Position numbers and translations under genes: made by a program. The notes under the pieces are model-generated. The model did not search any database. It saw nothing but the letters and a program-made list of their open reading frames with translations, and was not told the origin of the DNA. This document shows positions 1-57,215 of a stretch of 64,000 nt of DNA, piece after piece; positions within the stretch are counted from its first letter, which is position 1, and each line of letters begins with the position of its first letter. The stretch is from assembly GCA_000092065.1 (NCBI GenBank), contig CP000598.1; one strand, 5' to 3'. Origin of the DNA: Ostreococcus lucimarinus (taxonomy: Eukaryota).

Positions 1-148
1 CCCTAAACCCTAAACCCTAAACCCTAAACCCTAAACCCTAAACCCTAAACCCTAAACCCTAAACCCTAAACCCTAAACCCTAAACCCTAAACCCTAAACC
101 CTAAACCCTAAACCCTAAACCCTAAACCCTAAACCCTAAACCCTAAAC
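1..148. repeat. Telomeric repeat array (CCCTAAA)n, about 21 units. The G-rich strand TTTAGGG is on the complement, so this is the left chromosome end.
   Basis: Perfect 7-nt period from position 1 to 147, then unique sequence. Orientation (C-rich strand 5' to 3' running inward) is correct for a left telomere. Confidence 0.95.
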
Positions 149-788
149 GACATTGACAGCCCACCTTTCTCGAGATGCGCTTCGCCTTCCCGCTGCAGAG
201 CTTGGCAAACTTTTCCTTGGCATCAACCGAATGGTCTTCAGGACCACAAAAGCAATGCCAGATGGTTATATTCGTGTATAATGACCCCACGCTGTTTGTT
301 CCCCTCCCTTTCTTGTATCTAGAATAAACGCGGAACTCTGTGGCGGCGTCGCACTGCACGCCGCGTCGGAAATCTAGCAACCTCTCCGCCGGGATCACGG
401 CGTGCAGCCAATTACTCGCGCTTTTCTCGTAAGGCCACTGAACATCACATTGCCAAACGATATCTCGATGTGAGAACAATCCCGCAGGCGGTGTCGATAC
501 GAAAAACTTCGGCGGATCGCGCTTGGAAGCTCGCACCTTGAAAGCTCGCATGCTCCTGGCGTACTTGGTTTTGTTCGCTCGCGGGCCTTGGCCACTGACA
601 GAGCGAGTATCGTCCACGTAAAATGTCAGCCAGAACCCGTGACATCGCGTAACACACAGCTCAGAGTCCTTTCCGACGGTTGGAAACGAAAACACCGTCT
701 CGTACTCGTCGACGGGGACGATTCCGAGCGCGTCATCGCCAACCTGGGAGGGCACCGTCACCCCTTCCCCGGCATCTTCCGGCTGCAT
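129..788 (-). CDS. Hypothetical ORF (219 aa) directly next to the telomere. Its last codons and stop lie inside the telomere repeats.
   Basis: Long ORF in the six-frame track with no recognisable motif. The C-terminus reads into CCCTAAA units. In GC-rich DNA it could be spurious, or a gene truncated by telomere healing. Confidence 0.2.
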   Translation of the reverse strand: MQPEDAGEGVTVPSQVGDDALGIVPVDEYETVFSFPTVGKDSELCVTRCHGFWLTFYVDDTRSVSGQGPRANKTKYARSMRAFKVRASKRDPPKFFVSTPPAGLFSHRDIVWQCDVQWPYEKSASNWLHAVIPAERLLDFRRGVQCDAATEFRVYSRYKKGRGTNSVGSLYTNITIWHCFCGPEDHSVDAKEKFAKLCSGKAKRISRKVGCQCRLGFRV

Positions 789-1261
789 ATATCACGTCGC
801 GGCCGGGTTTGACGAGTCGTCGCGACTCTCACGTCGCAGCGACGGCGTCCCGCGCCGCGTTGGCGCCGTCCCCCCCCCGCCGTCGTCGCGCGGGGAGGCG
901 ACGTCTGCCGCGATGGCGACGCAGGGAGCTCGGCGTCTCGGCACAGTCCCTGTTGGCGAGTTATGACTGGTCAACGATTTATTGAGTCATGAACGGTCAC
1001 TGAAACCCTACTGATGTTGCTCTGAACGAGTCAAAATCCCATGGCATGTGATGAGAGATAAGCACATGAATGAAGCCAATCCCGTATTATAGTGGTTCTA
1101 ACGCCTATGTCTATACTACACGACCTAGACCTACATATAGACTTAGCGTGTATGAGTCAGCATCGGACAAGCTCGCGCGGCAACCATCGCGACTCATAAA
1201 CCCAAGGTTTCTCATAGATTATCTAACATTAGCACCAGTGTAATGCGGGATTGGGTTCATC

Positions 1262-1316
1262 TCATGAGTCATTATCCCTCATACTCGTAATCGACATCAC
1301 TTATCGACGCACTTAG
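1262..1316. repeat. Short fragment of the copia LTR family (matches the cgtaatcgacatcacttatcgacgcact core of the 53024/58579 LTRs).
   Basis: Direct by-eye match to the internal LTR segment atcatcacttatcgacgcactaggcccgattg of the intact element. It sits just upstream of the FkbM gene start. Confidence 0.55.
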
Positions 1317-1344
1317 ACGGTGCGAGCTTCGCCTGTAGATTCTG

Positions 1345-2472
1345 ATGTCACTCGTCACAGCAGCCCAGAAAATGTGCGCAACTCGAAAATATATTGCCGC
1401 TGCTAAGATTTTCACCGTCGTGAGCGCGTTGCTGGTGGTGCGAGAGTACGCACGAGCTGCTCAAAGCGATCGACGGGTTCGAGTCGACTCTCAAACGTTC
1501 ACAAACCAAGTCACGGATAGTAGACGCTTCGATCTGTCAACGTGGGCGAGAGAGCTGCTGCGCGACGTCGGTCCGAAAGCAAACTCTGATGGTATACGTG
1601 TGGGCTTGAGATACATGCAGGCTGAAGATAAACCGTTTTGGATGACCGTGCCTTATAAAATTCCACTTGCGGCCCACGATATAAATGAGCACGTATGGGA
1701 CGCGGGTTCATTTTATGTAGACACTGAAGCCGAATGCGCGCGCAAAATCATGTCGACATTCTGCAACCCCGCCGTCCTCGTCTTGGACGTAGGTGCCAAT
1801 TCTGGTTATTTCTCTCTGCTCGCCGCCGCCTCCGGCTGCAGAGCGTTCGCGTTTGAGCCTGTTAAAGACCACGTGTACTTCATCGAACTATCGGCCGCTT
1901 TAAATGGATTCCGTGATAGGCTACAAGTGTTCAACAAGATTGTTTCAAACACTAAAAATGTTATATTCAATGGCTGGAACGCTGCCTCGAGTGACATGTC
2001 GTTTGTTGCAAACGCTGAAGAGCATAACAAAGAAAAGGCCGGACTGGCGCAGTCGAGCATGAAGCAGGCCTCTGCAGATGATGCCGTCGCCATAGACGAA
2101 GTCGTGAAAGAAGACGTGCTATACATGAAGGTCGACGTTGAAGGCTTCGAACCGAGTGTGTTCGCATCTGCACAGAATTTGATCAAGGATTACACAGTGC
2201 GCTATATTCTCTTTGAGATGACATATTACTTGTACAAGTGGACAGATGCCGATTACTTGATGATACTAGAGTCTCTTGACGGATACGGATACCGCTTGTA
2301 CCACATCGAAGCCAACCATCCAATAAAAAATCCTCAGCAGACGCTTCCGAGAGGAGGATCCCGTTTGAAAGCGTGGTTTGATAAACTTAAGGCCACATGT
2401 GATACCCATGCTACGCATTTTTGTCAAGCAAATATATTTGCCGTTCACGCACAAGCAACCTGGCCAGTCTGA
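1345..2472 (+). CDS. FkbM-family SAM-dependent methyltransferase (Methyltransf_21).
   Basis: 375-aa ORF. Motifs LDVGANSGYFSLLAAASGCRAFAFEP and, about 120 aa later, VLYMKVDVEGFEPSV match the FkbM signature (LDVGAN.G ... IDLLKIDVEGAE). Codon use is GC3-rich. Confidence 0.75.
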   Translation: MSLVTAAQKMCATRKYIAAAKIFTVVSALLVVREYARAAQSDRRVRVDSQTFTNQVTDSRRFDLSTWARELLRDVGPKANSDGIRVGLRYMQAEDKPFWMTVPYKIPLAAHDINEHVWDAGSFYVDTEAECARKIMSTFCNPAVLVLDVGANSGYFSLLAAASGCRAFAFEPVKDHVYFIELSAALNGFRDRLQVFNKIVSNTKNVIFNGWNAASSDMSFVANAEEHNKEKAGLAQSSMKQASADDAVAIDEVVKEDVLYMKVDVEGFEPSVFASAQNLIKDYTVRYILFEMTYYLYKWTDADYLMILESLDGYGYRLYHIEANHPIKNPQQTLPRGGSRLKAWFDKLKATCDTHATHFCQANIFAVHAQATWPV

Positions 2473-2619
2473 GTCCAGAAGCCGGTCAAGAGCGCTTCCT
2501 TCATGGCGCTCACGCGCGCTACCACAGACTCGTCGGCGACAGCGACCCAAAGCTGATAGAGATAGCGAGTGCTACAAACATCGCGTATCCCGATTAACTA
2601 CTTTGAAACCAACTCATTT

Positions 2620-3166
2620 GAAGTGTTTTTGTCGTGCGTTCCTTATGCGGCAGGACTTAGAGGTGCGAATACTTGTGGATCCAAATGGGTAGATAAGGTA
2701 AAACCAGATGGTTCCCTTAAGTCTAGATTGGTAGTACAAGGATTCACCCAAGTTTGGTTGAAGGACTACCACGACACATTTAGTGCTTTTGCTTCCATGA
2801 CCACGTTTAGAATATTCATCAACGTTACGGCATCTTAAGATGGGACATCTTCACGAAAGATGTTTCCCAAGCTTAGACTTAGCTTAGAATTTAAGAGGAA
2901 CTTTTCAGGTCCAGCAGAAATTCACGAGTGTTCTAATCACTTCAACGTGATGTGAAGTCATATATCTTCAGAGTACATACAAGATTCCAGCAACCAGAGG
3001 TTGAATGAAGGTAATGTGAAGAGTGATGCGCTGCACACATTTCAAGAGTATCTCGAGAAGGTCGAAAGTGAGGAAACCCAACCTTTCAAAGGGATTGGTA
3101 CGTCTTCAGACTAGAGAAAGCTATAGCTCCTTGTAATCGACATCACTTATCGACGCACTAGGCCCG
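2620..3166 (+). mobile_element. Internally deleted remnant of the same Ty1/copia family: an RT fragment joined to the C-terminal end of pol, then a deleted 3' LTR.
   Basis: Translation CGSKWVDKVKPDGSLKSRLVVQGFTQVWLKDYHDTFSA (2677-2800) is near-identical to the RT segment of the intact pol at 53214-57212. Translation NFSGPAEIHECSNHFNVM...SDALHTFQEYLEKVESEETQPFKGIG (2900-3110) matches the pol C-terminus. Then come stop, the PPT-like ctagagaaagcta, and an LTR fragment ending at about 3166. Confidence 0.85.
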
Positions 3167-3527
3167 ATTGATCACAATTTATCAGGTATATCTCGCAGAA
3201 TCTGTCATTTATTATCAGGTGGAGGCAGCCAGATCACGCTGGTACACTGGTACCGAAAAAGCCTTCAGCAGGTGCTGCGGGCCTCTAGCCGGCGTTGCAT
3301 TGTCGCCCATCCTACCGCGTTGCACTGGTCGCTGTGAGCCGTCCGTGCGCGCGCCCACAGGTGTGCCGGTGGAATAACACCGATACCTTACCGACACACG
3401 TGCTCATCGATGTCGTCGCACGTAAAGAGCTTTTATTAAGACGAGTCGGCTGATTCTGCAACTCGCGGAACGAAACGTTTCGCGCACGAACGAGGGCTTT
3501 TTCGTCGCGAATTTCTCATCGCGCGGA

Positions 3528-4418
3528 ATGAAACGCGGAGGCGTTCGGAACAAGCTGTGCTCAACCAATCGGCGAGTTGATCGTTGCAATAAGGCATGGA
3601 CGCTCGCGCTGGTACCTTTCGCAACCACCTCAATTCTGCTTCTTTTGCTTCACGCGTCGCGGCGAGGTATACAAAGTCATTGGAACGACGCAACAGTGCC
3701 GGCGTTTCCGATGACTACGAATGGCGAAAACACAATGTCTGCTTTGCCTCACACATTGCACACCCTGACGTTACCGAACGATTCGTCGTTCGCGTTAAAA
3801 ATCACCACGCGACTCAACCCGACGTGGACGGTGAAGACGTACGACGCGTACGGCGGAGCCGAGTATATGGAAACGAACTGCAAAAAATATTCACGCGCGT
3901 ACAGAGCACTAAAACCACTCGCGTTCAAAGCTGATTTATTGCGGTACTGCATTCTGTACACCGAAGGCGGCGCTTGGATGGACGACGACATTTTACTGGT
4001 GAAGTCTCTCGACGAATTGACCCACGATATGCGCCACGACGCGTTGTTCGTGTACGACAGACGCGTGTACAAACTCGCGGGCGGGCCGAAACAAGTGTGG
4101 AACGCGTTCATGGTGGCGGTTCCCGGGTTGGACGTTTTCGCGCGCGCGATGGAGAAGATCGCCGCGAACGTCGCCGACCGACGACACTTTTATCATTCGT
4201 TGTACTACACCGGGCCCGCGTTGCTCTACGAAAGCATCGCGGATGGAGATTCGATCGAGTTTCGTTGGCGCGTGCAACATAGAGACGCGCTGAGCGCGGC
4301 GAGTCGACGCGTCGCGGACGTGCGCACGGACGAGGAGGTGTTGTTGCACTTTAAGCTGCCTCGAGCGACGAAGCACTACAGCGAAATGTCGCGGGGAGGG
4401 GACATTTACGCGTCGTGA
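3528..4418 (+). CDS. GT32-family glycosyltransferase (Och1/Gly_transf_sug type, DxD), type II membrane protein.
   Basis: 296 aa with the N-terminal hydrophobic anchor LALVPFATTSILLLLLHA. Motif KADLLRYCILYTEGGAWMDDDI matches the GT32 signature ADILRYxILYxYGGIYLDTDV. Confidence 0.7.
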   Translation: MKRGGVRNKLCSTNRRVDRCNKAWTLALVPFATTSILLLLLHASRRGIQSHWNDATVPAFPMTTNGENTMSALPHTLHTLTLPNDSSFALKITTRLNPTWTVKTYDAYGGAEYMETNCKKYSRAYRALKPLAFKADLLRYCILYTEGGAWMDDDILLVKSLDELTHDMRHDALFVYDRRVYKLAGGPKQVWNAFMVAVPGLDVFARAMEKIAANVADRRHFYHSLYYTGPALLYESIADGDSIEFRWRVQHRDALSAASRRVADVRTDEEVLLHFKLPRATKHYSEMSRGGDIYAS

Positions 4419-4641: not shown

Positions 4642-5613
4642 TTGTTGCTTTTCGCGGCGTGTTTGACCCTGTTCACACGGTATCGCCGCGCCAAACTCGC
4701 GCGTGCTCGGGTCGAAGAACAGCACTCGTCCGTACAACCGAAGCCGACGCGTTCGACGGCGCCGATCGCAAAAGACGTCGACGCCGCCTTCGATCGCGCG
4801 ATCAACGCGATCAACGCCGATAAGCTCAAGCGCTACGCGCTTTTCGACACCGTCTCGCGCGGAGGCACGCAGAAGGCCGATGGTTGGTACCAAGACAACG
4901 TGGAGCCCGCCGTGACGTGCGCGCGCGAAGAGCGCGCCGGTCCAGCTGGCGAGGGTGGGAAGGGGTTGTGCGACCCGAACCGTCTGCGCGCGCAGGGTGC
5001 GGACTGTTTGATATATAGCGTCGGAAGTTTCGATGACTTTAGTTTCGAAGAAGCGATCACGCGGGACGTGTCGAGCGCGCGCGAAATACACGCGTTCGAT
5101 CACACGGTGTCGAACCCGCGAAACAAACCGTGTGGTGTCCACTTTCATCCATTGGGATTAGGAGGCGCGCGCGAACCCGATGGGAGCGATTTGAAAGGTT
5201 TAGCCGACATCGTCGTCGCGCTCGGTCACAAAGGAAGGACGATAGACGTATTAAAAATTGACTGCGAAGGCTGCGAATGGAGCACTTACGGCAGCTGGTT
5301 CGACGCCGACGTGCGCGTCGATGAAATGCTCGTGGAAATACACGCGGGCACGATTGACTCGAACTTGAACGAAATACATCAATCGTGGCTCTCTCTGATC
5401 GTCGGCGAACAACTTTTCGGCCGCGGCGCGCTCGACCCTTCGCGCGAGCCGGTGGCGAAACGTTTCTTACGACGCCTTTACGACGAAAACTTTTACATTT
5501 TCCACAAAGAGCCGAATATCAAGTATTCACGATTGCACAAAATGTGCGTCGAATTCGCACTCATTCGCTTCGATGGTGGTATTGAGGGTGTGGAAAATTC
5601 CCCAAACTCGTAG
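4642..5613 (+). CDS. Methyltransf_21 (FkbM-domain) methyltransferase-like protein, membrane anchored.
   Basis: 323 aa. N-terminal TM LLFAACLTLF; CLIYSVGSFDDFSFEEAI...EIHAFDHTVS; later IDVLKIDCEGCEWS. These fit the Methyltransf_21 pattern (C.VYSFG.g.D.SFD ... HAFDPT ... ID.LKIDVEG.E). The true start may be internal. Confidence 0.6.
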   Translation: MLLFAACLTLFTRYRRAKLARARVEEQHSSVQPKPTRSTAPIAKDVDAAFDRAINAINADKLKRYALFDTVSRGGTQKADGWYQDNVEPAVTCAREERAGPAGEGGKGLCDPNRLRAQGADCLIYSVGSFDDFSFEEAITRDVSSAREIHAFDHTVSNPRNKPCGVHFHPLGLGGAREPDGSDLKGLADIVVALGHKGRTIDVLKIDCEGCEWSTYGSWFDADVRVDEMLVEIHAGTIDSNLNEIHQSWLSLIVGEQLFGRGALDPSREPVAKRFLRRLYDENFYIFHKEPNIKYSRLHKMCVEFALIRFDGGIEGVENSPNS

Positions 5614-6041
5614 TAGGTGACAGACACTCTTGTAAATCACTGGGCACGTCCTTTCGAGTCAGCGCTCAACTCTTCGATGACGAAACCAGCGCCACCAGCT
5701 CGACGTTCCATCGAGTCTTTCGACGCAAATGCTCGCCTGTCCTCCGTACCCGCCGCCAGTGGGAAAAAAGTACCGCGCGTTCGCCAGATAGACGAAATCG
5801 TCATCCGGGAGCGCGCTCAGCCGCTGCACGATGTCGTGGCCGCGTCGCGTGAGAAGCTCGACCACCTTGATCGTGTACCATTCGCTCCCTTTGCTATCGC
5901 TAAAATGATTCCTATGCACGGCTGAACCGACGACCATGACGGACAATCGCCTCTCGCAAAGGTGGTTATGACTGACAGACACAAGACGCTTAATTAGTTT
6001 CAAGCACTATGCCACTTTGAGCCGATGCAACCGCTCTCAGC

Positions 6042-8318
6042 CTACCCGAAGAAATCCTTTCCACGGTTCTCGCATTCAACGAAACCAATTTGATAGTGTT
6101 TGTCAACCAAGTGGCGCTGCCTCGCCGTGTTGCGCCAGTTATTCCGGCGAATCCATTTTTGATACTCTATTTCGTCGCTTTTCAACGCGAAGAAATACCG
6201 GCGGTGTCGCGCGCTCGATCCACGCGACGCGCGCGAGCACGTAGTCTCGGCTTCATTTCTGTCAAAGAAAAAGTCGTGCGTTCGTAAAGGACGATTTCTT
6301 AGAACTAGCGCATCTCGAAACGAGCCGTACGAAAACGCTACGCGAGCGGCGCAGTTAAACTCCACCAAGTCAGAAATCAAGTCCCGTCCAAGTCTCATGG
6401 TGACGTTTGGAAGTACCGCGGCGAGCTGTTGAAAAAACATACACGTTGGATTGTTCAAGTCTTCGCAGAAAACTCGCACTTGTAATGCCGATTCCGAAGC
6501 GTAACTCTGCACGCTCGCGTAGTACGACGTCGGAAAAGGTCCGTACGTCGTGTGCTTTGACGGCTCTTTCGCAACGAAATGACCCGTCCAACGACTGTAG
6601 GAGCCGCTGACGATGTCTCCCGCGCGCACGTGCACCGCGAGCACATCATCGCCGACACTCTCGCAGGCACGACCAAACGCGTGCGTCACGTTCGTTTCAA
6701 AGTAACGCGAGATAGCATTGGTTACGACAGACCCGTCTGGTATAGACATTCGGTCGTCTGCAAAACCGTTCTGTTGACGAAGCGCATCTTTCGATTTGAG
6801 GTACGTATCGTACCAGCGACGCCCGCTCAGTTTCTGACACTTCTTCGCAGCACGCTTATTCCGCACACCATCGATCTGTTTGTTTGCGAAAAACGTATTT
6901 TCTGATCTCCATCCCGGTAGTATGTCGTCGAGTATGCGCACGTGACAACCGCGGACCAGCGCGTCCTCGAGCATCATCGCAAATATCCGTACCCTATTGC
7001 CGAGCCGACCGTACCATCGCTTAACTGAAACGATATCTGTGTCGTCGTACCTATCGCTCGATGGCTTCATTGGCGTGAAAACCATTCGCTCGTGATCAGT
7101 CTTCGGCTTTGAATCGACGTTTTTGTCGACGCCGGGGCGCGCCGAGCCGTTGCTCCCTCTAGCGATAGGACCATAAAACCAGTCGCGCAGCCATCGTCGC
7201 GCTCCGGGATGCGCTATGTTTTCGAATACATCGCCGTCTGCGGAAAACATACTTTGAAACGTCTTGGCTGTGAACGAAATCGCGCCCACGCGTTCGCCCA
7301 TTTTGACATCCGGCCGTCGAGGACAGACGAGATTCCCCTCCTCGTCAATTGAAAGTTCCAAGTTTTCAACCGTCGGATGCATGAAGTTGGAACAAAAGAA
7401 ACCAAAGTTATGACTCGACAAAAGTTTGTGCAGCAACACATCGCTCGATAACATTTCTTCCTCGAGCATCTGTCCGTAATACGTTTGTAAATCGTATTTC
7501 GGTGGCGTCCTCGCGCTGGACGTAATCCTCCTCCGTTCAAAGTCTCTGACCTTTGCTATTGTTTCGCGATCGAGCGACCAGAGATCTCCGAGTGCGTCGA
7601 ATTCCGGTCGAACCGAAGAGTGCGCGGAATGAAAACATGCTCTTATTCCCTCGCAGTGCGCGCCTCTTTGGTAACCCACGACCCACGACGAGCTTTGCCT
7701 GAACGTCTGTCCCAAGTCTACGAAGACGAGAGTGTCGAGATCGATCCATATCACCCTCGCACCGAACACCGTCATTAAATGTTCTACAGCATCAAGTTTC
7801 GCTCGTGAAAGCGCCGCCCACGGCCCGACGTTCGTGTAAGCGTTTGGCGGAAAAGACTGCGAGTCGCACGCGTGCGTGATTACGTCAACCTCTGTGCCAA
7901 ACGTGGTCTTGAGCGGAATCACGCCCGGCGTGTCCGTGTACACGTGTAAACACGGCGGTTTCCTTGCTTGCGATCTCGCCAACGACGAGTACATGAGCCG
8001 CAAAGCTATCTTCGTGCTTTCCACGCTCCATCTTTTGCCAGCGTTCCGCGCAAAGGCAAACGTAGCGAAGCGAATCGATTCCGGTTCGTCGGCTATCGAC
8101 GCTTCAAGCCGACCTCCGATGCACGGTTCGACGACCACTCGCGACTTTTTACGTTGGAGTGCAACATCATCGCTTTCTCGGGCGCGCTCGCGCGTGCGCT
8201 CTCTGCACAGCCAGCACGCGCACAGCGCGACGAGTACTATCGGAAGCGCTCGTCGTCGCGCGCGCCGCTGCGTTCGATGCGCGGGCAGAGTCGCCCGCGC
8301 ATCGCACGCGAACATCAC
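6042..8318 (-). CDS. Two-domain glycosyltransferase. The N-terminal domain is DxD-type (paralog of 25206-25985). The C-terminal domain is fucosyltransferase-like GT-B with an HxRxGD motif.
   Basis: 758 aa. TM LPIVLVALCACWLC near the N-terminus. The N-domain contains VIWIDLDTLVFVD and aligns by eye residue-for-residue with the 25206 ORF (SRAKLD.VE.LM...WIDLDTLVFVDL...SVRPEFD.LGDLWSLD...PPKYDLQ.Y...NFGF.CSNF.HPT...). The C-domain HVRAGDIV plus RWYGRLGNRVR resembles the GT11/GT23/GT65 fucosyltransferase motifs. Confidence 0.65.
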   Translation of the reverse strand: MMFACDARATLPAHRTQRRARRRALPIVLVALCACWLCRERTRERARESDDVALQRKKSRVVVEPCIGGRLEASIADEPESIRFATFAFARNAGKRWSVESTKIALRLMYSSLARSQARKPPCLHVYTDTPGVIPLKTTFGTEVDVITHACDSQSFPPNAYTNVGPWAALSRAKLDAVEHLMTVFGARVIWIDLDTLVFVDLGQTFRQSSSWVVGYQRGAHCEGIRACFHSAHSSVRPEFDALGDLWSLDRETIAKVRDFERRRITSSARTPPKYDLQTYYGQMLEEEMLSSDVLLHKLLSSHNFGFFCSNFMHPTVENLELSIDEEGNLVCPRRPDVKMGERVGAISFTAKTFQSMFSADGDVFENIAHPGARRWLRDWFYGPIARGSNGSARPGVDKNVDSKPKTDHERMVFTPMKPSSDRYDDTDIVSVKRWYGRLGNRVRIFAMMLEDALVRGCHVRILDDILPGWRSENTFFANKQIDGVRNKRAAKKCQKLSGRRWYDTYLKSKDALRQQNGFADDRMSIPDGSVVTNAISRYFETNVTHAFGRACESVGDDVLAVHVRAGDIVSGSYSRWTGHFVAKEPSKHTTYGPFPTSYYASVQSYASESALQVRVFCEDLNNPTCMFFQQLAAVLPNVTMRLGRDLISDLVEFNCAARVAFSYGSFRDALVLRNRPLRTHDFFFDRNEAETTCSRASRGSSARHRRYFFALKSDEIEYQKWIRRNNWRNTARQRHLVDKHYQIGFVECENRGKDFFG

Positions 8319-8329
8319 GCGACGTGCGC

Positions 8330-8960
8330 GCCGCGTCCCCGCGGACGCGGTCGCTCGTAATGCGGAGCGTCACGCGAAACAGAGCCGTCGCGGTCCGTTT
8401 TAGAGGAGGGTGTCGGCGAGGCGCGCGTCTCGCTCGGTGCGTCGATCCGGGTGCGCGGTGAAGATGATCTCGCGCGCGTCGTGCGTAGCGGACGCGGAGA
8501 ACGTCCCCACGCCTTGTGACGGCGGTTATCCCCCTTCGGCGCCCCAAACGCCCTCTACACACCCATGGCACCTTCGAGGGAGAGCCTAACGTCCAAACCG
8601 ACGTGGAAACTTTAGCCCCAGAACCGCGCGCGCGCGAGCGTCGTTCGCGCGCCGAGCGCGGCACCGATCGTCGCGCGCTGTGCGACGAGGGATTACGACG
8701 CCGACGACGCGGGTGCGCGAGCGCGACGCGCGAAGAAGGAGAACGCGTCGAAACGCGAATGGCGGCGATTCTCGCGGACGAGGATGCGGACGGTGCCCAC
8801 GGGCGCGGGCGTCGTCGGGACGACGCGCGCGGAAGGGGCACGCACGGCGTGGAGCTCGGCGAGCAGGTACGTGTCGCCGTTCATGACGTATTGGTCGCTG
8901 ATATTCGCGATCGCCGACGCTAACTGTCTCGGCGGCGACGCCACGGGGGCGACGTCGGCG
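8330..8960. repeat. GC-rich (CGCG-type) low-complexity block that produces overlapping arginine-rich spurious ORFs on both strands.
   Basis: Sequence is dominated by cgcg/gcgc oligomers. All ORFs here translate to R/A/G-rich low-complexity peptides on both strands. Confidence 0.6.
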
Positions 8961-8977
8961 GGAGCGCGTCGTCGAGC

Positions 8978-9199
8978 GTGCCGATCGCGAACTGGGACGT
9001 GAGCGCGGTGGATGACACGCGCGATTTGTTTCAGTACAAGAGTACCTTGAACGGAGATATCAGGAACTGCAACGTTGGCGCGGTGAAGAACGCGCATTCC
9101 ATGTTCTACCGGGACATCTCGCGCTTGGACGTCCGTGCGGTGAGAGATGTGCAACAAACGTTCTACTCAGCGTCGGCCTGGGAAGCTCTGACGCATTGA
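8978..9199 (+). pseudogene. Possible DUF285-type (BspA-like, WDVS.VT.M..MF) repeat fragment.
   Basis: Translation ANWDVSAVDDTRDLFQYKSTLNGDIRNCNVGAVKNAHSMFYRDISRLDVRAVRDVQQTFYSASAWE contains about 2.5 units resembling the DUF285 repeat W[DN]VS.VT.M..MF....FN.DIS.W. It is not embedded in a long intact ORF. Confidence 0.3.
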
Positions 9200-9235
9200 C
9201 GCACCTCGAGGTGTCTATGAAGAACGCCGCCAGAG

Positions 9236-9448
9236 TACGATCTCCAGGCGTATTTCAGTCTGATGCTCGAAAATGGTGTACTTGCCGAGAACGCTTTGCT
9301 TCACAACTTTCTACCGGACCTCAATTTTGGTTTCACGTGTTCAAACTTTGAGCACCCAACGTCGACTAATATGGAAATTTCTGTCGATAGCGCTGACGAT
9401 CAAGATGTTCGCGCTTGGTTCGCGCGATGGTTTTACTCGCCGCTCTGA
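9236..9448 (+). pseudogene. Truncated duplicate of the 3' end of the 25206-25985 gene (segmental duplication, internal deletion).
   Basis: Translation MLENGVLAENALLHNFLPDLNFGFTCSNFEHPTSTNMEISVDS|DDQDVRAWFARWFYSPL is near-identical to the C-terminus of 25206-25985 minus about 45 aa. The downstream sequence continues the duplication into the GT90 gene. Confidence 0.8.
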
Positions 9449-9490
9449 AAGAATTCGGCAGTAGTTGTCGCTAGATCGTAATATTTAATA

Positions 9491-10696
9491 CTATACCATA
9501 CCTAAGGCTAGCTCATTCAGACGATGGGAAACGCCCTTGACGACGCGCTCGTACGTAAATTCTTGCATCAACGCGCGAGCATTTGCTGTGATATCACGCA
9601 ACTTCGTTAGCGATTCGCCATCGGTGTTCGCCACAATCTTCGTTTTTTCCACTAAATCGTGCAAATCTCCAGATATTCCGATGTAGTGTACTCCATCTAC
9701 CAGCTTGTCGCTGTAATAGTGCTTGAAATTTGACTTGACGAGGAACAGGACGCTCCCGCTTTCCATGCGCCAACGGTTTCCCCACGCGTCGACGTTTCCA
9801 TCGATTTCGAGGATACCTTTGTGCGTGATCCAATGCTGTTCCGATACGTGCGGGCTAATGCGTACATTTGTTTGTCCTTTACACGATTGTACCCTTCGCG
9901 TGATCTCGACGTCGAGCCAAGGAACATTTATGGATGATTGCACCGCTCGCACGCGCGGAAGTTCAACGCACGCGGTAACCCTTTCGTTCACGTCGACGCG
10001 AGCGGGTTCTTCTATTTCGCATTTTGTTGACATACCAGACGTCGAGCCTCTCCAGAATACGTCGGATTTGCGTTCATCAAACGGAATCTCACGTTCACGC
10101 AGATTCCGAAGCAACGGTTTGAACCCGTCGCGCTTGATGAAGTGGAAGTTTGGCGCGAGCACGACTGATTCGTCGGTGAAACAATCCACATTGATAGAAT
10201 GCGCCAGAATGAAAGTGTTCAAGGATTTCAATTCCCGTTTCAGCTCCCTCGGCATAGAGGCATCGTCGTCAATCACCCAAAGGAGTCGTAGAGCCACGTC
10301 GCTTCGTTCTCCTTGGTTCTGTCGCCGTTCCACAGCGACGTCTCGGAGAAACCGCAGGGCACTTTTAAAGTAGCTACGATTCAGCGGTTCACGCCTGCGT
10401 GCGACGAAGGTGTACGACGACGGCGAAGTCGCCTCCGGATGAATGGTGAAACACGCGACGTCTTTACCCAAGCCAAATGAACTGAACTTCAGCATTCGTT
10501 CCCTCACGTCGCCGCAGCAGTTCCGACAGTGCGTCCAAGCATCTTCTCGCATCCACATCTCGCTCAAATACTTCACCGAGCGCTCGCATCCGCGTGTTAT
10601 GAACTGCAAAGACAATACAAACTTCAACAACCAAAAAGCCAACAGCACGCGCAAACCGAGCCGACGTGCGGAGGTTTTCATGGCTGCGGTGGACAT
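9491..10696 (-). CDS. GT90-family glycosyltransferase (CAP10 / protein O-glucosyltransferase-like), membrane anchored. Copy 1.
   Basis: 401 aa. N-terminal TM LRVLLAFWLLKFVLSL; FWRGSTSGM; THKGILEIDGNVDAWGNRWRMESGSVLFLVKS...HYYSDKLVDGVHYIGISGDLHDLVEKTKI. These fit the Glyco_transf_90 pattern (FWRG ... KY.IDIDGN..S.R...L..SVV.K ... HY.P...DLSDL.EK). About 90% identical to 26028-27245. Confidence 0.75.
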   Translation of the reverse strand: MSTAAMKTSARRLGLRVLLAFWLLKFVLSLQFITRGCERSVKYLSEMWMREDAWTHCRNCCGDVRERMLKFSSFGLGKDVACFTIHPEATSPSSYTFVARRREPLNRSYFKSALRFLRDVAVERRQNQGERSDVALRLLWVIDDDASMPRELKRELKSLNTFILAHSINVDCFTDESVVLAPNFHFIKRDGFKPLLRNLREREIPFDERKSDVFWRGSTSGMSTKCEIEEPARVDVNERVTACVELPRVRAVQSSINVPWLDVEITRRVQSCKGQTNVRISPHVSEQHWITHKGILEIDGNVDAWGNRWRMESGSVLFLVKSNFKHYYSDKLVDGVHYIGISGDLHDLVEKTKIVANTDGESLTKLRDITANARALMQEFTYERVVKGVSHRLNELALGMV

Positions 10697-11005
10697 GTCG
10701 AAAAGCTCATAATCACTGCGATTTACCCGAGTCTATGTGTATGAGCGTGCCGTTGTAAATCGAACGCGTCGCGGAGTGGAACGAGTATGCGAACGAGCGA
10801 AAGGCGCCCTCGTTTGCGCAGAAATTTCAAAATCGAGAGGCACGCCGCACTTGTTGACACGTGGTGTACTCTAAGACGAGTGGTGCTCACGATAACTCGA
10901 TGCGCTCTACTATGAAACTTTAACTTTGGATGCGCATTAAAGCTGCTGCGCGGATATGGCGTCGCGTGAAACAACGGAACGGGCGTTGATAGCACTTCGG
11001 TATAC

Positions 11006-12247
11006 GTGAGATTCCACACCCTAGAGCGAGATATCGACGTCAAGGACAGTGCGATGCCGGTGAAACGCCGTGAGCGAACACGAATGATGCGTGCGTTTTT
11101 CCTCTCATCAGCGCTCTTCTACGGGTCTACTCAGCTCAGATCTCAAAGGTACGTGACGTCACAGAGAACTAATTCGAGTTGCTTCACGACGCCCGACTAC
11201 GACGAGTATTGCGTGTTAGAAGATGTATGCGTCACACGTGGTGGACTTTTGGTCTCGACAGCGCTTACGACGCTCAAATCGGACGGGCATGAAATCAGTA
11301 GACTTTCCAACTTACCCACGGTGGATATGTCAAAGTTTCACCAGCTACCACTGAGGGCGTACGTGGACGTAAAAGTCGACCCGGTGATTTTCACGCACGC
11401 TCTCAATAAGAACCACACGTCGAATCTGTTCGTGATCGCTCCAGACGACAAACGCGGCGCAAATCCCTTTCATTTCGCGCAATCTGCCATGTTCTTTTTT
11501 CACAGCGCTCTCAGGACGCTAGAGAATTCGGATAGCTCTTCTGTCGTGATAATTTTTAGACAGCGGCCGCCCGCTCAAAGTTGGATTGATAGTTTGACTC
11601 AGCAGATCTTTGGCGACGTCAGGGTCGTTTATGGTGACGAGTTGACATCGCCTATTTGTGCCAGAAGAGTTGTCGTCGCTGGAACTATGATAGGTTTACT
11701 TCAAGGCCCATATGACGCTCAATTATTTCGAGACCGAGTGTATGGCAATCTCAAAATCAACCCGAAACGAATAAACAGAGCGGATTTGCGAGTGACACTG
11801 ATTGATAGAAAGAAGAGACGTGTCACTAACGTAGGCGAATTACAAGAAATATTGGATGAGCGTCGACTTTGGTACAAAACTGTTCGGCTCGATACGCTTT
11901 CTTTCAAGGAGCAAGTGTCCCTCATGTCAGAAACAGACTTGCTCATTTCATCGCATGGCGCCGATCTTACGAACGTTATATTCATGCAACGAGAAAGCGC
12001 AGTCATTGAGCTCTTTCCTTCGACGGTTTGGTACTATGAGCTCTACGCAAAAATCGCACGGAACGCCGGATTGTTCCACACGTACGCTCTCGGCGATCAA
12101 ACGCACGCCGTTACGAAGACCATTGCGGAGTGCTTTGAAAGTGCCTGTCTGACCGAACTGAAACGCGACTTTATGATACCGCCTGAACGTTTTCGTACTT
12201 CTCTCGATCACGCGCTCAGTCTCCTTGGAGTCGCCAACGCAGTCTAG
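11006..12247 (+). CDS. GT61-family (DUF563, EOGT/xylosyltransferase-like) glycosyltransferase.
   Basis: 413 aa. Motif EQVSLMSETDLLISSHGADLTNVIFMQRESAVIELFPS matches DUF563 (adVLvGvHGAgLtNllFm.pgs.viEl.P). There is a hydrophobic N-terminal segment. An alternative start is at 11054 (MPVKRR). Confidence 0.7.
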   Translation: MRFHTLERDIDVKDSAMPVKRRERTRMMRAFFLSSALFYGSTQLRSQRYVTSQRTNSSCFTTPDYDEYCVLEDVCVTRGGLLVSTALTTLKSDGHEISRLSNLPTVDMSKFHQLPLRAYVDVKVDPVIFTHALNKNHTSNLFVIAPDDKRGANPFHFAQSAMFFFHSALRTLENSDSSSVVIIFRQRPPAQSWIDSLTQQIFGDVRVVYGDELTSPICARRVVVAGTMIGLLQGPYDAQLFRDRVYGNLKINPKRINRADLRVTLIDRKKRRVTNVGELQEILDERRLWYKTVRLDTLSFKEQVSLMSETDLLISSHGADLTNVIFMQRESAVIELFPSTVWYYELYAKIARNAGLFHTYALGDQTHAVTKTIAECFESACLTELKRDFMIPPERFRTSLDHALSLLGVANAV

Positions 12248-12274
12248 TAGATTGATCCGCTTCGAGTTGCGGCA

Positions 12275-13600
12275 TTAGACACGACGTTCAGTGGCGGTCC
12301 AAAAGTCCCAACGCGCGTTCGTGCAATCATCAAAGTACGAGAAGCACGGGTGAGGAGGAAACGTGATCGAGGAAGCTAAGCCGCTGTAAGTACTATTCGA
12401 TCCAACAATACACGATGCTTGAGATAGAACATAAAGCTCAGCAAAAGTATCCATATTCCCTTTTCGCATACTCCGCTTGAAGACGCTCCAACTTCTGTCG
12501 ATGTGAAAAACATTGGTACTGTGCACAGTGCGCACGCCTCGAGCCGACACCAAAGCTGAACTTTTTAGTTCGTCACTATCAGAAAATAAAACTATTGGAG
12601 CGACATGAGTGGTCAACGAATCCTTTGCGTTATCGCGTGTGTGTTCCACGAGCAGCTGTCGCTTCATTTCTGCACAGTCAAAAAACTTTGTCACATCCTC
12701 AATATCGTGGCGCTTCGGGTCAATCCAACCAACGACTCGATTTGAACGTTTCATCTTTCCACCGATCCGTGCGTGGACGGCGATGAAAGGTGAATTGTCT
12801 TGAAGACGAAGCTCTTGAAGCATTTCTAAGGCTCGACGTTTGACGTTGGGCGCAAAGTGAAACAGGTTAGTAAACGCAAAACTAAAAGTATGAGCAGCAC
12901 TCGAATCATGTGCAAGCGTGCTTCCACACTGTGAACTACGGTATTGCGTCATTTTGCCCTTAAAATATTCGGCCACGCCATCAGATCGTGTTCGTGTAGA
13001 CTGATGAGGATCTGACCACAAAAAAATTCCGACATAGTACCGGTTGATGTGAAGTCTAATTGTGGGTGTTCCAGCTCTTTGCAACGCTTCGATCCTTTCG
13101 AGGTCCTTTGAGGGGACTTTGGAATCCACCATGAAAATTTCGGTCTCTTTGAACCCCGTCGAAGCGCATACGCGCTTGCTTTTATGTTTATGGTCCCATC
13201 GAACTGTCTTCGGAACCAAAGTGTGCGTTAGCGGGAAAGGAGACTTGTACTCAATGAAAAATGCCCTATCCAATACGACGGCGAGATAAAACGCACTCAT
13301 GATACCACTCATTCGGTCACCTACACCCCCACAGAGCTTGTCGCAGACGTATATCAAGGACGGTACGCACTGACCCTCCTGCGATCGTCGCACAGCGTTC
13401 GCGTGGAAATCAGCGTAACGCTGAAACCAGCAAGATTCCCGACGGTCAGTGTACAAGGCGCTAACGGAACCGTTGAATCTATTGACGTGCAGATCGCCTT
13501 CGAAACTTTGACCCGTTAGTTTCAGCACACCATAAGTTAAGATGAGTCCCACGGGACAGACTGAAAACTTTGTGAGACGCTTCGAAGACGTCTTCTTCAT
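12275..13600 (-). CDS. Putative fucosyltransferase-like GT-B glycosyltransferase (GT23/NodZ/O-FucT superfamily).
   Basis: 441 aa. TM near the N-terminus. CGGVGDRMSGIMSAFYLAVVLDRAFFI resembles the N-terminal Gly-rich motif of GT23/O-FucT. FIAVHARIGG resembles the HxRRGD motif. The family call is tentative. Confidence 0.5.
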   Translation of the reverse strand: MKKTSSKRLTKFSVCPVGLILTYGVLKLTGQSFEGDLHVNRFNGSVSALYTDRRESCWFQRYADFHANAVRRSQEGQCVPSLIYVCDKLCGGVGDRMSGIMSAFYLAVVLDRAFFIEYKSPFPLTHTLVPKTVRWDHKHKSKRVCASTGFKETEIFMVDSKVPSKDLERIEALQRAGTPTIRLHINRYYVGIFLWSDPHQSTRTRSDGVAEYFKGKMTQYRSSQCGSTLAHDSSAAHTFSFAFTNLFHFAPNVKRRALEMLQELRLQDNSPFIAVHARIGGKMKRSNRVVGWIDPKRHDIEDVTKFFDCAEMKRQLLVEHTRDNAKDSLTTHVAPIVLFSDSDELKSSALVSARGVRTVHSTNVFHIDRSWSVFKRSMRKGNMDTFAELYVLSQASCIVGSNSTYSGLASSITFPPHPCFSYFDDCTNARWDFWTATERRV

Positions 13601-14202
13601 GCCTTCCGTCTACTCGACGCCTAGATATTGATCATGAAGCCTTCTTTCCAAGCTAAATGCCGATCGTAGGTTCTTCTCTGAAGCGTCGAAACGAGTATTA
13701 GTCGTGCGCCCTGCTACTGTACAGGGGCGGACGACTGGCGACCCGTTCGGTGTTTGGACCGGGTTTACTGAGTCAGGTGGTTCGTGTGGTGCGGTGCGAA
13801 CTTTCGACAACCAGTGCTCACGTTTGCAACCCCATGAATGAGTACAAATCGTAGTTAACTCTCGCCAGGCGCACGGCACTGACGACACGGCAACGCCAGG
13901 AGCGCGGTCGACCTAAATAATAAGTCTACGACACTCTAGGACACTACTTTACAAACTTTACAGAAGGAGTGCACGCGCCTTTAGCGCCACGTACACGCGC
14001 GATAGTCCTCGCCCTTCCACGCTCTATCTCTACTATGGCCGCGAAAGCTATGTATCTATGAACGGGGTGGGGTATGAGGGACCTCGCAAACTTCCTACGC
14101 GCTTGCCATGTTTTAGGGCTTGATCTGTGGTCATACCTGGAGCGCAACAGATTTACGAATATCACCTTAGAGCGTACTTATTCTATGCGTTGGAACGATG
14201 TT

Positions 14203-15249
14203 TCAGCTCGCTTTTTTCACGCAATGTTTGGGAACTAAAAGAGGTTTCCAGCAAATATTATGCACCGATCCTGGCGCGCTCATTTTTCCTGCCTGAACGG
14301 ATGTAAGCTCCTTCAAAGAGCATCCTTGTCGCTGAAAAGTGTGCGGTAAGTAACCTAATAGCTTCATGTGATCGATCATGTCGATGAGTGTACAATTGGT
14401 ATATTGCTGAAGACCAGGATTATACTCAGTTAAAATTGTACATGGGTTGCCACCATGTAAGGTCGCCGCCGCGCCTTTCAAGACGCGACACTCATTTCCT
14501 TCAATATCCATTTTCATGAAGGCGATAGGATTCGAACCACTGCCTAGTATTTCATCAAGGGTTATGGACTTCATTTCTTCGGCACAGTGCCCCGTCGCTC
14601 CTTTTGTTTTTCTTTGGCCACCTCCACAGAAAGGATGATCTGCAAACTGAGTAAACGGTACTAGAATACCGTCGCTCGGGTTTCCAATAGGCCGGCACAC
14701 ACAAAACCGTTCGGATTTTGACGCAGGATCAGCAAGTGGCGTATTATGTAGTTTCAACAGCGTGGTCCAGCCGTTGTGATCTGCGCTACAGCGTAACAGA
14801 TTCGCGTTATCCGGGAGTGCCTCCACGGCGACCACTTCGCGGCCCAGAGAAAGCGCAACACTCGTCATAACACCGACATTTGCACCTATATCGACCATCA
14901 TTCCATCTGCAATACTGAGTTGACGCCGAATCAAATTGCTTATCGCTGGCTCGAAAGTGCCCTTCGCCTTAACAGTAGAAGTGATCGCATCGCCCGAATG
15001 AAAAAGCCACGGATTTCCATCGACCGATAGAAGCTGAGCCTGCCGGACGCCGCAGTTAAATCTGCTGGAACGAGCTGCGTTATTGTCACGTACAGGAGAT
15101 TCACTCAAAGCTGTACGAATGTACCAGCACGCGATACAGGCGGCGCAGAAGGCGCAAACAGTCACCAAAGTACTCCTCTTAACAAGTGACGCAACAGCCG
15201 GGAACGAACTTTTCAACCGCCCGGGGTTCGGTTTCGCCATACTCACCAC
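14203..15249 (-). CDS. FkbM-family SAM-dependent methyltransferase, membrane anchored.
   Basis: 348 aa. TM LVTVCAFCAACIACWYI; MVDIGANVGVMTSVALSLGREVVAVEALP and FMKMDIEGNECRVLKGA match the FkbM motifs. Confidence 0.75.
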   Translation of the reverse strand: MVSMAKPNPGRLKSSFPAVASLVKRSTLVTVCAFCAACIACWYIRTALSESPVRDNNAARSSRFNCGVRQAQLLSVDGNPWLFHSGDAITSTVKAKGTFEPAISNLIRRQLSIADGMMVDIGANVGVMTSVALSLGREVVAVEALPDNANLLRCSADHNGWTTLLKLHNTPLADPASKSERFCVCRPIGNPSDGILVPFTQFADHPFCGGGQRKTKGATGHCAEEMKSITLDEILGSGSNPIAFMKMDIEGNECRVLKGAAATLHGGNPCTILTEYNPGLQQYTNCTLIDMIDHMKLLGYLPHTFQRQGCSLKELTSVQAGKMSAPGSVHNICWKPLLVPKHCVKKAS

Positions 15250-15522
15250 TATTTGTGCGCGATGCGTTCGCGGTAATGCGCACCGGGGATGGGAAATGGC
15301 GATCGTATGCGTCGTGTGAGCTTTGAATCGATAGCGACCGTGTATGAAGCCGGAGTGACCTCGTACTCACCCTTGAACGACATCGCCGTGAAAACTTATA
15401 GCGTTCGCTCTAAAACTGATAGTATTTATTCACTACGTACTAGATTACTAAGGCTAAACATCTCTTGAATATGTCGCGAGATTGCCGCGCGCAAGAGCGC
15501 TACCAAGAAGAGGATGTCACTA

Positions 15523-17895: not shown

Positions 17896-18039
17896 CTCCG
17901 CGATGTATGCTGGCGTCGGAATCTTCGGGCACGCGGACGTCCTTCACGGAGGAATGAATCGTGGTTCGCCCGGGCTTCGCTAAATTTAGCTCGGTTTTGG
18001 CCGTTCATGACTCAAGAGTATGGGTAAAGGGTGAGGACT

Positions 18040-18312
18040 CCGCCGGGGTGTTTTTACCTCGTGCAACTTTTTTAGAAATCGATCACTTACAGCGACAAGC
18101 TAGTAGATGTGATACACTTCATCGGAATATCCGAAGATTTGCACGATTTGGCTGAGAAAACGAAGATTGTGGCGAACACCGATGGCGAATCGCTAACGAG
18201 GTTGCGTGAAATCACAGCAAATGCTCGCGCATTCATGCAAGAATTTACGTATGAGCGCGTCGTCACGGACGTTTCACATCGCCTGAATGAGCTAGCCCTA
18301 AGTATAGTATAG
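18040..18312 (+). pseudogene. Degenerate C-terminal fragment of a GT90 gene (duplicate of the 3' end of 9491-10696 / 26028-27245) in the opposite orientation.
   Basis: Translation ...LEID|DKLVDVIHFIGISEDLHDLAEKTKIVANTDGESLTRLREITANARAFMQEFTYERVVTDVSHRLNELALSIV matches the last ~70 aa of the GT90 paralogs, with an internal deletion after LEID. Confidence 0.8.
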
Positions 18313-18764
18313 TATCAGAAACAGAAACCTCCCGGCGACGTTTGTTCGCGAGCAAAGAAACGGCAACCTCACGAGCATCTTTGGCCACTTGAGCGCGCCA
18401 GTCTTCGTCGTCGCAAGCGGGAGCCGTCGTTGCCTCTGCTCCTCCCAGCGAGGCTGAAGATCGCTGAGAAGCCTTCTTACAACCTTTCCGTGCCGTCGAC
18501 ACGGTCGGAGACGCGCTTCGGCGCGCGCGAGGGTGCGTCATACGCGACAGAATCTGGCCCAAAAGTTAACGTGCCCATCGAGCTCCAACGGTCGTGTTCC
18601 GTCAACACCCACGCACAGAATTCAAACTTAAACGGTCGGATATCACGATACGCGGAAACATCGGTTGACTCCGCGCCGCCCGGACGCGCGCGCGGCGCGA
18701 AGTGGCGCGCGACGGCGCGACAAACGTCGACGTTAATTAAATTCATTATTTTACCCTCATACAT

Positions 18765-18860
18765 TATTTTCGAAATGCGAGCTATACCTAATACTATGCG
18801 ATCAATCGGGCCTGCGTCAATAAGTGATGATGATTACAAGTAGCTATCATTGATTAGTAC
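18765..18860. repeat. Divergent LTR-like fragment related to the copia LTR.
   Basis: gctatacctaatactatgcgatcaatcgggcctgcgtcaataagtgatgatgattacaa parallels the LTR start gctataccttatatgatggtgagcaatcgggcctagtgcgtcgataagtgatgataattacaa. Confidence 0.55.
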
Positions 18861-18882
18861 TCGATGGGCACGTTAACTTTTC

Positions 18883-19470
18883 GATTACGAAATATGCGAT
18901 GCTACGGCAGGGGGAGTAGCGCCCATCCCGAACACCACCATGGGAAACCCGCTATCGAGTTACACTAAATGAAAACTCAAATCTATTTTCACTTCGCGTA
19001 CGTACGCTAGGCGTGAGACTCTACACGGCGAGGTACGCTAAGTAAGATATTGAATACGATGTCCAAAGTATCGTCCCCACAGCTTCTTTGTATCGACCAG
19101 CATTTTCAATCCAGTTCAAGCGCGCTGCTTTGTTTGACGTGACGAATTGCGGCTTGAACGACACGAACATTCCATCGAAGGTTAGCGACGTTGTGTGACT
19201 CCATGTCCTCGATCGTTCGATCCCGTTGGTCTGGATGCTTCATCCAGAAAAGAGCCGTGGTTCGCGGCCATGCCGGATGCTCTCGTGCGGACGCTCTCGT
19301 GCGCACCATAGAACGCAGGTTCGGGTGGCACTTGCTCATCACGTGCCACAAGCCACAGGATTCAAAGCATGGTGGACTTTGATGCGTGAAACAGGTTCGT
19401 AGATGACAGCCGTTGTCACGAAGTCAAAGCTCTTTATCGGCGCACTTAAAGTGTATGCAGTAGACCAGAT
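18883..19470. repeat. Segmental duplicate equal to [22524-22880] joined directly to [24641-24850]. These are the flanks of the 22744-24342 gene, with the gene body absent.
   Basis: Near-identical strings run from cgattacgaaatatgcgat...ggatgcttcatccag (18883-19261 vs 22524-22879), then switch at the same point to aaaagagccgtggttcgcgg...aagtgtatgcagta (19262-19470 vs 24641-24850). Confidence 0.85.
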
Positions 19471-19954
19471 CCAAAAATAAACACAAGATAGTTTCGTCCT
19501 CGGAGCGACCTTCGGTGTAAAAGAATACAGACTGAGAGACTCACAGAACTAGCCTCTGACAGAACGTGGAGGGTAGAGGGGTCACCAGTGCTTTAACGAT
19601 CGAAAGACTTTGTCGAAGTGCCGCGTGTACATGAATTTCTGTGGTTTTATTCTCCCCGTTATCTCTGACGCGTGTCGGATCAATACCAGGTATGATATAT
19701 GGGTGAGTAATTTGTACATGAATACGGGAAGCTCGCCTAGGTTACCCCCGAAGGAGTAATCACTTTCGCGCCCCGCCGAACCGCCGTTCGTTTTCTGCGC
19801 GCCGGTGCGAGTGGCGTCAAAAGGCGCGGCGTCGCGTGGACATCGCGCGCAGCACTCGCGAACGCCCTCGAGGCGCGCGCGGTATTCGCGAGCATGTCGT
19901 CGAGATAATCTGCGAAAATCTAGACGCGCTCGACCGAGACGCCCGTCCGCCCGC

Positions 19955-21144: not shown

Positions 21145-21149
21145 GTGTG

Positions 21150-57212: not shown

Positions 57213-57215
57213 TCA

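Follow-up and report, generated by a model that had tools for sequence, protein, structure and literature searches.

The left end of chromosome 18 of Ostreococcus lucimarinus CCE9901, a small outlier chromosome (SOC) with a record of 149,386 bp, raises the question of how an intact cellular gene came to lie between pieces of a retrotransposon. The window, by which we mean the whole 64,000-nucleotide (nt) stretch analysed, begins with telomere repeat, and about 1.2 kb further on an FkbM-family methyltransferase gene starts with an ATG at position 1345. It is the sole long open reading frame (ORF) between a fragment of a Ty1/copia long terminal repeat (LTR) on its left and, on its right, a reverse transcriptase (RT) piece, the C-terminus of pol and a second LTR fragment, all in one orientation (Table 1). 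The initial annotation had described this order and the place of the gene within it, and an ORF scan, the PF05050 match and the telomere at 1-148 bear it out; it had further suggested that the gene might have been captured or transduced by the retroelement, or have inserted into a dead element, and that FkbM paralogs may spread in this way. We consider another origin probable, if with reservations: the gene is a resident, functional FkbM gene of chromosome 18 lying between the decayed remains of copia insertions in both of its flanking spacers, and the copia 'shell' is most readily explained as what decay by deletion, together with rearrangement, has left behind, and not as the vehicle of the gene.

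The 375-amino-acid (aa) product (ABP00596.1, XP_001422279.1; annotated as 'expressed methyltransferase-like protein') matches PF05050 Methyltransf_21 (FkbM) over profile positions 1-173 of 173 (E=1.7e-11, 45 bits against a cutoff of 22.7), and hydropathy places an N-terminal hydrophobic anchor at aa 17-35. It is presumed to be a type-II-anchored methyltransferase that tailors glycans, to judge from its family, its membrane anchor and the context of the chromosome (PMC5082852). The product is encoded identically on environmental contigs in 202 metagenome blocks, and 25 contigs were compared with the window. The closest homolog, on contig L011, shares 76% aa identity and keeps the motifs VLDVGANSGYF and KVDVEGFEP; with a dN/dS of 0.21 (dS 0.85) between the two, the gene is evidently under purifying selection. 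Past 2505 a weaker resemblance to this homolog, seen by eye, runs to about 2560. Intron loss is uninformative here because both genes are intronless.

Only one NCBI accession falls in the 90%-identity cluster of the product, which makes the gene single-copy in the reference genome, with no paralog there at 90% identity or above. The three FkbM-type genes that had been counted in the window are roughly right: there are two intact PF05050 genes, one PF13383 Methyltransf_22 gene and one truncated PF05050 remnant, and the other FkbM-type proteins are 21-29% identical to the product, with no similarity at the DNA level. No copia sequence is detectable near the 76% homolog in the 1.9 kb upstream and 0.47 kb downstream covered by its contig. 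The supposed spread of FkbM paralogs by the retroelement finds no footing in a single reference copy, such distant paralogs and a closest homolog of this kind. No close relative of the gene was found in viral contigs, so there is no sign of a prasinovirus origin at that sensitivity.

The standard against which the copia pieces are measured is an intact element elsewhere in the window. In its pol, rve (aa 186-307) precedes RVT_2 (aa 774-999), the order of integrase before RT that defines Ty1/copia; its LTRs are identical (173/173), run TG...CA and are flanked by a 5-bp target-site duplication, AAGTG. The precise empty site is seen in two environmental contigs (L001, 3030-3080; L021, at about 3421), and the element is a polymorphic, very recent insertion that landed inside a repeat resembling the terminal inverted repeat (TIR) of a Mutator-like element (MULE). 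Comparison with this element, as the initial annotation had proposed, confirms the family of the RT piece, the pol C-terminus and the 3' LTR stub (Table 1). The RT fragment also matches Pfam RVT_2 (E=4.5e-7) at 30.2 bits, just short of the 31.6-bit cutoff, and a polypurine remnant lies at 3113-3123. Some boundaries shift: within the LTR fragment placed at 1262-1316 the scrap is real and only 1287-1313 is demonstrably LTR, and the remnant placed at 2620-3166 is likewise real and internally deleted in pol, with pol homology starting at about 2650-2660 and the LTR ending at 3197. The junctions of the unit (marked by a slash) are CGACGCACT/TAGACGG between LTR and gene and GGACTTAG/AGGTGCGAAT, and the k-mers CGACGCACTTAGACGGTGCGAGC and GGCAGGACTTAGAGGTGCGAATAC mark the two.

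The shortness of the upstream scrap invites the explanation that it is a chance or low-complexity match, which would leave only an ordinary truncated element downstream. Within the window the match is confined to 27 nt, and the neighbouring 69 nt (1218-1286) do not align: against three LTR versions two give no signal and the third gives p ~0.02, driven by one 11-mer, GCACCAGTGTA, that also occurs at the 5' LTR edge of the B-type haplotype described below. The scrap is, however, identical to 3133-3159 at 27 of 27 positions and to both LTRs of the intact element at 24 of 27, a match of which zero are expected (100 dinucleotide shuffles), and five environmental contigs extend it to about 137 nt of LTR (E=1e-15 to 1e-19) with the identical gene junction. 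A chance match is accordingly barely conceivable, and the worry that the LTR piece would prove too short or too diverged to be homologous is answered by the same three observations.

The environmental contigs are 98-100% identical over shared DNA and differ in structure. Ten of them, which we call A-type, have the upstream arrangement of the window, including the LTR scrap and its junction with the gene; from position 145 on, nine of the ten are colinear with the window. Since ten independent contigs carry this arrangement, an assembly artefact is excluded. In the A-type haplotype, that of the reference strain, the upstream neighbour of the gene is the MULE TIR at 982-1217. Five others, the B-type contigs (L005, L008, L010, L013 and L017), match the window only from 1291 onward. 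Upstream of this point they have the stretch of about 137 nt of copia LTR, 73-74% identical to the intact LTR by blastn, which meets the gene at the same junction as in the window (...GACGCACT/TAGAC.GTGCGAGC). The two types differ upstream only, with the breakpoint at 1290/1291 inside the LTR stub. A search for other copies of the chimeric unit yields one copy in the reference, and the variants among the contigs change the upstream flank only: all nine contigs that extend past the 3' LTR stub (B-type L005, L008 and L010; A-type L002, L006, L007, L009, L014 and L015) have the flank of the window from 3198 onward, L013 and L016 ending earlier. The 1.18-kb deletion in pol is absent from L013 and L016, where RT reaches pol aa 1080 and aa 1028 (the contig end), respectively.

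The B-type haplotypes also show what stood upstream of the LTR. They contain the full, intact MT329 gene (329 aa, PF05050; Pfam match on the L008 copy), whose C-terminal part is found far to the right in the window (Table 1). It directly precedes the LTR stub and the FkbM gene, oriented divergently and about 143 nt from the LTR, as would be expected for an old local gene pair. A homolog search with MT329 gave only a 186-aa cluster representative, and the sequence upstream of its 59-64% homologs is short and uninformative.

Upstream type and the state of the pol deletion occur in all four combinations (B/short in L005, L008, L010 and L017; B/long in L013; A/long in L016; A/short in the group of the window). 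This pattern suggests either recombination between haplotypes or switching of the assembly between strains across the 99%-identical shared unit. Three further ideas about these contigs found no support. A less diverged RT piece in L001 and L004 was rejected, only the first 93-127 nt having been compared and these being identical to the window; the overlap of L013 and L016 is unsupported as a tandem duplicate, being only 89% identical; and an origin of the A- and B-types through one inversion with its ends at 1287 and 59282 is speculative, the reciprocal junction not having been found.

Had the gene travelled with the element, the hallmarks of retrotransposition should be sought around it. A complete LTR pair (TG...CA) is absent: the 5' piece spans at most LTR positions 1-137 (27 nt in the window) and the 3' piece about 100-173, so that both are truncated on their inner sides, the 5' piece lacking the last ~37 nt and the 3' piece the first ~100 nt. 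The primer-binding site (PBS) and leader are absent from all 15 junction-bearing contigs. There is no target-site duplication around the unit, the 5 nt being ACCAG or TGTAC before the B-type LTR, whose exact 5' edge could shift by 2-5 nt, and GAATC behind the 3' LTR, and the sequence of the 3' spacer of the gene contains no poly(A) tract before the RT junction.

These absences weigh heavily on RNA-mediated capture, in which copia would have taken up an FkbM mRNA by read-through or template switching, as in maize Bs1, integrated as a trans-mobilisable chimeric element and then decayed. The gene and pol fragments do share an orientation, the insert is about the size of an mRNA, the polypurine tract is kept, an autonomous and recently active copy of the family lies 50 kb away, and in L018 a full LTR, PBS and leader are fused close to the gene. 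Reverse transcription, however, regenerates two complete identical LTRs, and for this reason the junction at LTR position 137 is not a primary product of it; the LTRs without inner ends, the missing PBS and leader, poly(A) tract and target-site duplication, the single reference copy without a paralog of at least 90% identity, and a downstream flank that is the same in all nine contigs reaching it, with no copy in which both flanks differ, all speak against capture. In the L018 fusion (L018 5649-5998) a GT1 gene is followed by a complete LTR with PBS/leader and then by the FkbM gene from nt 1442 on, without a start codon. The upstream 1.5 kb of L018 equals L001 1-1508, and because L001 has a normal FkbM gene 8.6 kb further on, the fusion would most simply reflect the loss of about 8.6 kb that L001 retains. 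Capture by way of RNA is accordingly very unlikely, and transduction as first proposed finds no positive support. It is just as far from likely that the locus is the relic of a chimeric copia that transduced a functional FkbM gene and was once trans-mobilised by autonomous copies such as that at 53-58.7 kb. Were this so, glycan-tailoring genes would be carried about by retrotransposons on the 'viral immunity' chromosome of the alga, and capture would supply a mechanism for the multiplication of surface-glycan genes on the chromosome that Ostreococcus uses against prasinoviruses; this does not hold. Between the PBS/leader of the other copia copy in L018 and FkbM nt 1442 lie 41 nt of unexplained origin.

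A more serious alternative dispenses with RNA. A single dead copia between MT329 and the GT32 gene would have lost its interior between LTR position 137 and RT residue 772, some 3.8 kb, to a 1.35-kb chromosomal patch with the whole FkbM gene, introduced when a break was repaired from an ectopic template or with filler DNA; further deletions would have followed. One copia would account for the order and orientation of the LTR and pol pieces and for their complementary truncation, the same 27-mer stands on both sides, and the insert is nearly gene-sized, with 31 nt before the ATG and 187 nt after the stop. Patches made of gene fragments do occur at this locus. L006 has an extra 287 nt at window 2605-2612 (L006 2612-2898), an antisense internal Methyltransf_11 fragment that covers profile positions 46-93 only; in L021, a 41-kb contig, a 616-nt copy of window 46524-47138 (L021 9369-9984) replaces 1007-1733 and decapitates the FkbM gene; and in L019 (3639-3931) and L020 (2367-2657) a 293-nt piece of the FkbM gene (1726-2018, 96%) lies in the spacer between two unrelated genes. 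The observed patches are, however, gene fragments of 0.3-0.6 kb and never a complete functional gene, the reference genome holds no donor copy, and it would be a coincidence that the recipient adjoined another FkbM-family gene. Nor is there a target-site duplication across the putative element, and an unrelated copy is at least as close to its 5' and 3' LTR pieces as these are to each other: a by-eye count over the 36-nt overlap gives 5 differences between the B-type 5' LTR and the 3' stub, 5 between the former and the unrelated L018 LTR, and 4 between the 3' stub and L018, so that these 36 nt give no sign that the two stubs were sister LTRs. We judge a single element, which needs both a complete gene patch and a lost target-site duplication, less likely than two insertions, and on balance doubtful. 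The proposed insertion of the gene into a dead element is possible in this form, and is weakened by the missing target-site duplication and by the divergent neighbour of the FkbM family.

As observations in their own right, the patches amount to three independent events, 0.29-0.62 kb in size, each placing part of one chromosome-18 locus inside another. Their breakpoints in the FkbM gene at 1726 and 1733/1734 nearly coincide, beside a GCGCGCGC run, and truncated or decapitated copies of the gene are present in several natural haplotypes. For the patch in L006 a reading as the genuine 3' end of a neighbouring, convergent gene was rejected, its Pfam match being internal to the profile, and a homolog search for the donor of this 85-aa Methyltransf_11 piece gave no matches.

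The resident gene between two decayed insertions thus remains the reading that we prefer. In this scenario a copia, or a solo LTR, would first have inserted into the spacer of about 175 nt (143 + 31 nt) between the divergent MT329 and FkbM genes, and trimming would then have left only its LTR positions 1-137. A rearrangement at 1290/1291 within this stub would next, in the reference-strain lineage, have brought a MULE encoding an Ulp1 protease alongside, leaving 27 nt of LTR. On the downstream side another copia, matching the first in family and orientation, would have lost everything 5' of RT residue 773, and later pol aa 845-1222 and the first ~100 nt of its 3' LTR. The order of these events is inferred, and so are two separate insertions, in favour of which we count that there is no target-site duplication and no sister-LTR signal and that the neighbour MT329 is of the FkbM family; the spacer lengths are moreover plausible, and each step is a deletion of a type that is polymorphic at this locus. 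Such polymorphic deletions include that in pol (absent in L013 and L016), that of about 8.6 kb (L018 against L001) and one internal to the MULE (L001 and L002).

Several points weigh against this scenario. Two insertions of the same family and orientation within 1.4 kb, with complementary truncation, are by rough estimate a coincidence of a few percent at a density of about five copia remnants in 64 kb. Between the 27-nt scrap and the 3' stub there is full identity, which includes a CGAC variant; this variant, however, also occurs in the unrelated L018 LTR. A haplotype with the gene and without the flanking copia pieces was not found among the contigs, so that prior residency is a presumption. 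The 76% homolog has other neighbours (an unrelated gene resembling a glycosyltransferase upstream and nothing informative in 470 nt downstream), so that synteny is no help. The LTR overlap of 36 nt is short, the weights given here rest on such overlaps and on rough priors, and the metagenome contigs may be strain chimeras across the shared unit. What probability is not taken up by the explanations named here falls to more complex histories.

With only 31 nt from the LTR junction to the ATG, the promoter of the FkbM gene should lie in whatever is upstream. The predicted promoter would be the LTR stub in B-type strains and the MULE end plus the 69-nt spacer in the reference strain, and the present start of transcription would fall within the 31-nt leader, the LTR stub or the end of the MULE.

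Comparison with known systems places the locus more exactly. The defining features of transducing LTR elements were taken from a review (PMC13317346). As in Bs1-type elements, host coding sequence stands between LTR-derived sequences in the orientation of the element, with a polypurine tract downstream; unlike here, those elements have complete LTRs, a PBS, target-site duplications, gene fragments as cargo and mobilised copies, whereas the present cargo is complete, under selection and single-copy. Chromosome 19 of O. tauri carries an internally deleted copia derived from retrostreo2, a miniature terminal-repeat retrotransposon (TRIM; Yau et al. 2016, PMC5082852). It is one example of the decayed LTR-retrotransposon remnants, among them solo or truncated LTRs and 5'-truncated elements, of Mamiellales SOCs, and resembles the present case in being Ty1/copia with extensive internal deletions, on a low-GC, hypervariable chromosome rich in glycosyl- and methyltransferases, with an autonomous relative in the genome; however, the TRIM keeps both LTRs and holds no host gene, while here there are inner-truncated stubs without a target-site duplication and a complete host gene between them. 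A Pack-MULE is brought to mind by the Mutator-like element directly upstream of the gene in the reference strain, but the gene (from 1345) lies outside the MULE terminus (TIR end at ~1217) and occurs without the MULE in B-types, and it is therefore not MULE cargo.

A further parallel is the 'viral immunity chromosome' itself (Blanc-Mathieu et al. 2017, PMC5498103; Yau et al. 2016, PMC5082852), where deletions, duplications, translocated patches and chromosome ends likewise vary among strains around glycan-tailoring genes. Those studies treat O. tauri cultures at the level of blocks, whereas here the junctions are resolved to the nucleotide in natural O. lucimarinus-like populations and the breakpoints fall in copia and MULE remnants. 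SOCs are rich in methyl- and glycosyltransferases, with 11 methyltransferases among 97 ORFs on O. lucimarinus chromosome 18 (PMC5082852); Ty1/copia is enriched on them in most Mamiellales species (bioRxiv 10.1101/2025.04.21.649811), and their remodelling involves duplications, translocations and 'massive rearrangements of small repeats' (PMC5498103). The window conforms to this pattern, with GT32, Methyltransf_21 and Methyltransf_22 matches and many structural variants among the contigs. Of ten of its proteins that were looked up, nine are present in the collection, and six bear accessions on the CCE9901 chromosome 18 record. The FkbM locus is a well-resolved new example of known SOC behaviour and not a new kind of element. 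It offers a nucleotide-level view of chromosome remodelling in nature, in which transposon remnants mark the sites of deletion, patch insertion and flank swapping; this is consistent with published SOC hypervariability and adds detail to a picture that is unchanged.

Table 1. Features called in the window, in order of position. Slashes mark junctions.
Feature	Position	Strand	Evidence
Telomere repeat, (CCCTAAA)n	1-148		read from sequence
First 215 codons of 1410-aa Ulp1-protease/MULE transposase gene, cut by telomere	129-788	-	tblastn: aa 1-215 at 788-144
MULE TIR region, outer terminus GAGAAACC... at ~1212-1217	982-1217	+	inverted copy in L001 6946-7078
Stretch between MULE end and LTR scrap, 69 nt	1218-1286		no significant alignment to any LTR
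Copia LTR scrap, ~LTR positions 111-137, 3'-truncated at junction ...GACGCACT/TAGAC	1287-1313	+	identity to other LTRs
Leader between LTR junction and start codon, 31 nt	1314-1344	+	read from sequence; common to all 15 junction-bearing contigs
Intact FkbM-family methyltransferase gene, 375 aa	1345-2472	+	Pfam PF05050
3' untranslated spacer	2473-2659	+	BLAST homology to 76% homolog stops at 2505
Fragment of copia RT, pol aa 773-844, frame lost after aa 828	2660-2878	+	91% to intact element 54835-54616 (blastn/tblastn)
14-nt filler at internal 1.18-kb pol deletion	2879-2892		repeats adjoining AGCTTAGA
Copia pol C-terminus, aa 1223-1310, stop 3112-3114, polypurine-tract remnant	2893-3123	+	90.5% to 53435-53205
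3' LTR stub, ~LTR positions 100-173, without 5' two-thirds, ends ...CTCGCA	3124-3197	+	87% to intact LTR ends
PF13383 Methyltransf_22 gene	4642-5613		Pfam
Second intact PF05050 gene	14203-15249	-	Pfam
Intact reference copia, outside the bracketed unit	53024-58751	-	gag + pol, rve then RVT_2
C-terminal 97 codons of FkbM-family gene MT329 (truncated PF05050 remnant)	59283-59573	+	tblastn 100% over aa 233-329

The chromosome end of the reference strain is a healed break, telomere repeats having been added de novo inside the MULE transposase gene. The telomere is joined at 144/145 to about codon 215 of this gene, and eight environmental haplotypes read straight through position 145 without a telomere. 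The complete Ulp1/MULE ORF is found on contig L004 at 1-4230 (Pfam Peptidase_C48 E=3e-20, MULE E=1e-8), and in L001 and L002 it is internally deleted, aa 1-351 being joined to aa 1030-1410. The terminal inverted repeats have the terminus GAGAAACCTYGGGTTTAT... and a repeated 42-nt subterminal motif. No 9-bp target-site duplication was seen around the L001 copy. Copies related to the MULE TIR lie at 58790-58933 and 52896-52935, and the window contains no tRNA genes as possible integration targets.

There are about five copia remnants per 64 kb. An isolated LTR 3' fragment of about 72 nt (18776-18847, minus strand) has the internal structure of the 3' stub at 3124-3197 and no adjoining pol. A second, diverged copia remnant (58934-59283) ends in its RNase H region at a breakpoint, 59282/59283, which joins this tail to codon 233 of MT329. 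The pol coding region of the intact element includes two tandem 72-nt repeats, 88% identical (55344-55487, minus strand).

Among the larger rearrangements we note two pairs of direct repeats in the window with 95-99% identity (9220-9692 and 25622-26229; 19859-20440 and 36164-36746). In contig L025 position 9398 is followed directly by about 25800, and L021 is without 5737-25172; segments of 16-19 kb are accordingly present or absent between strains, apparently through these large direct repeats.

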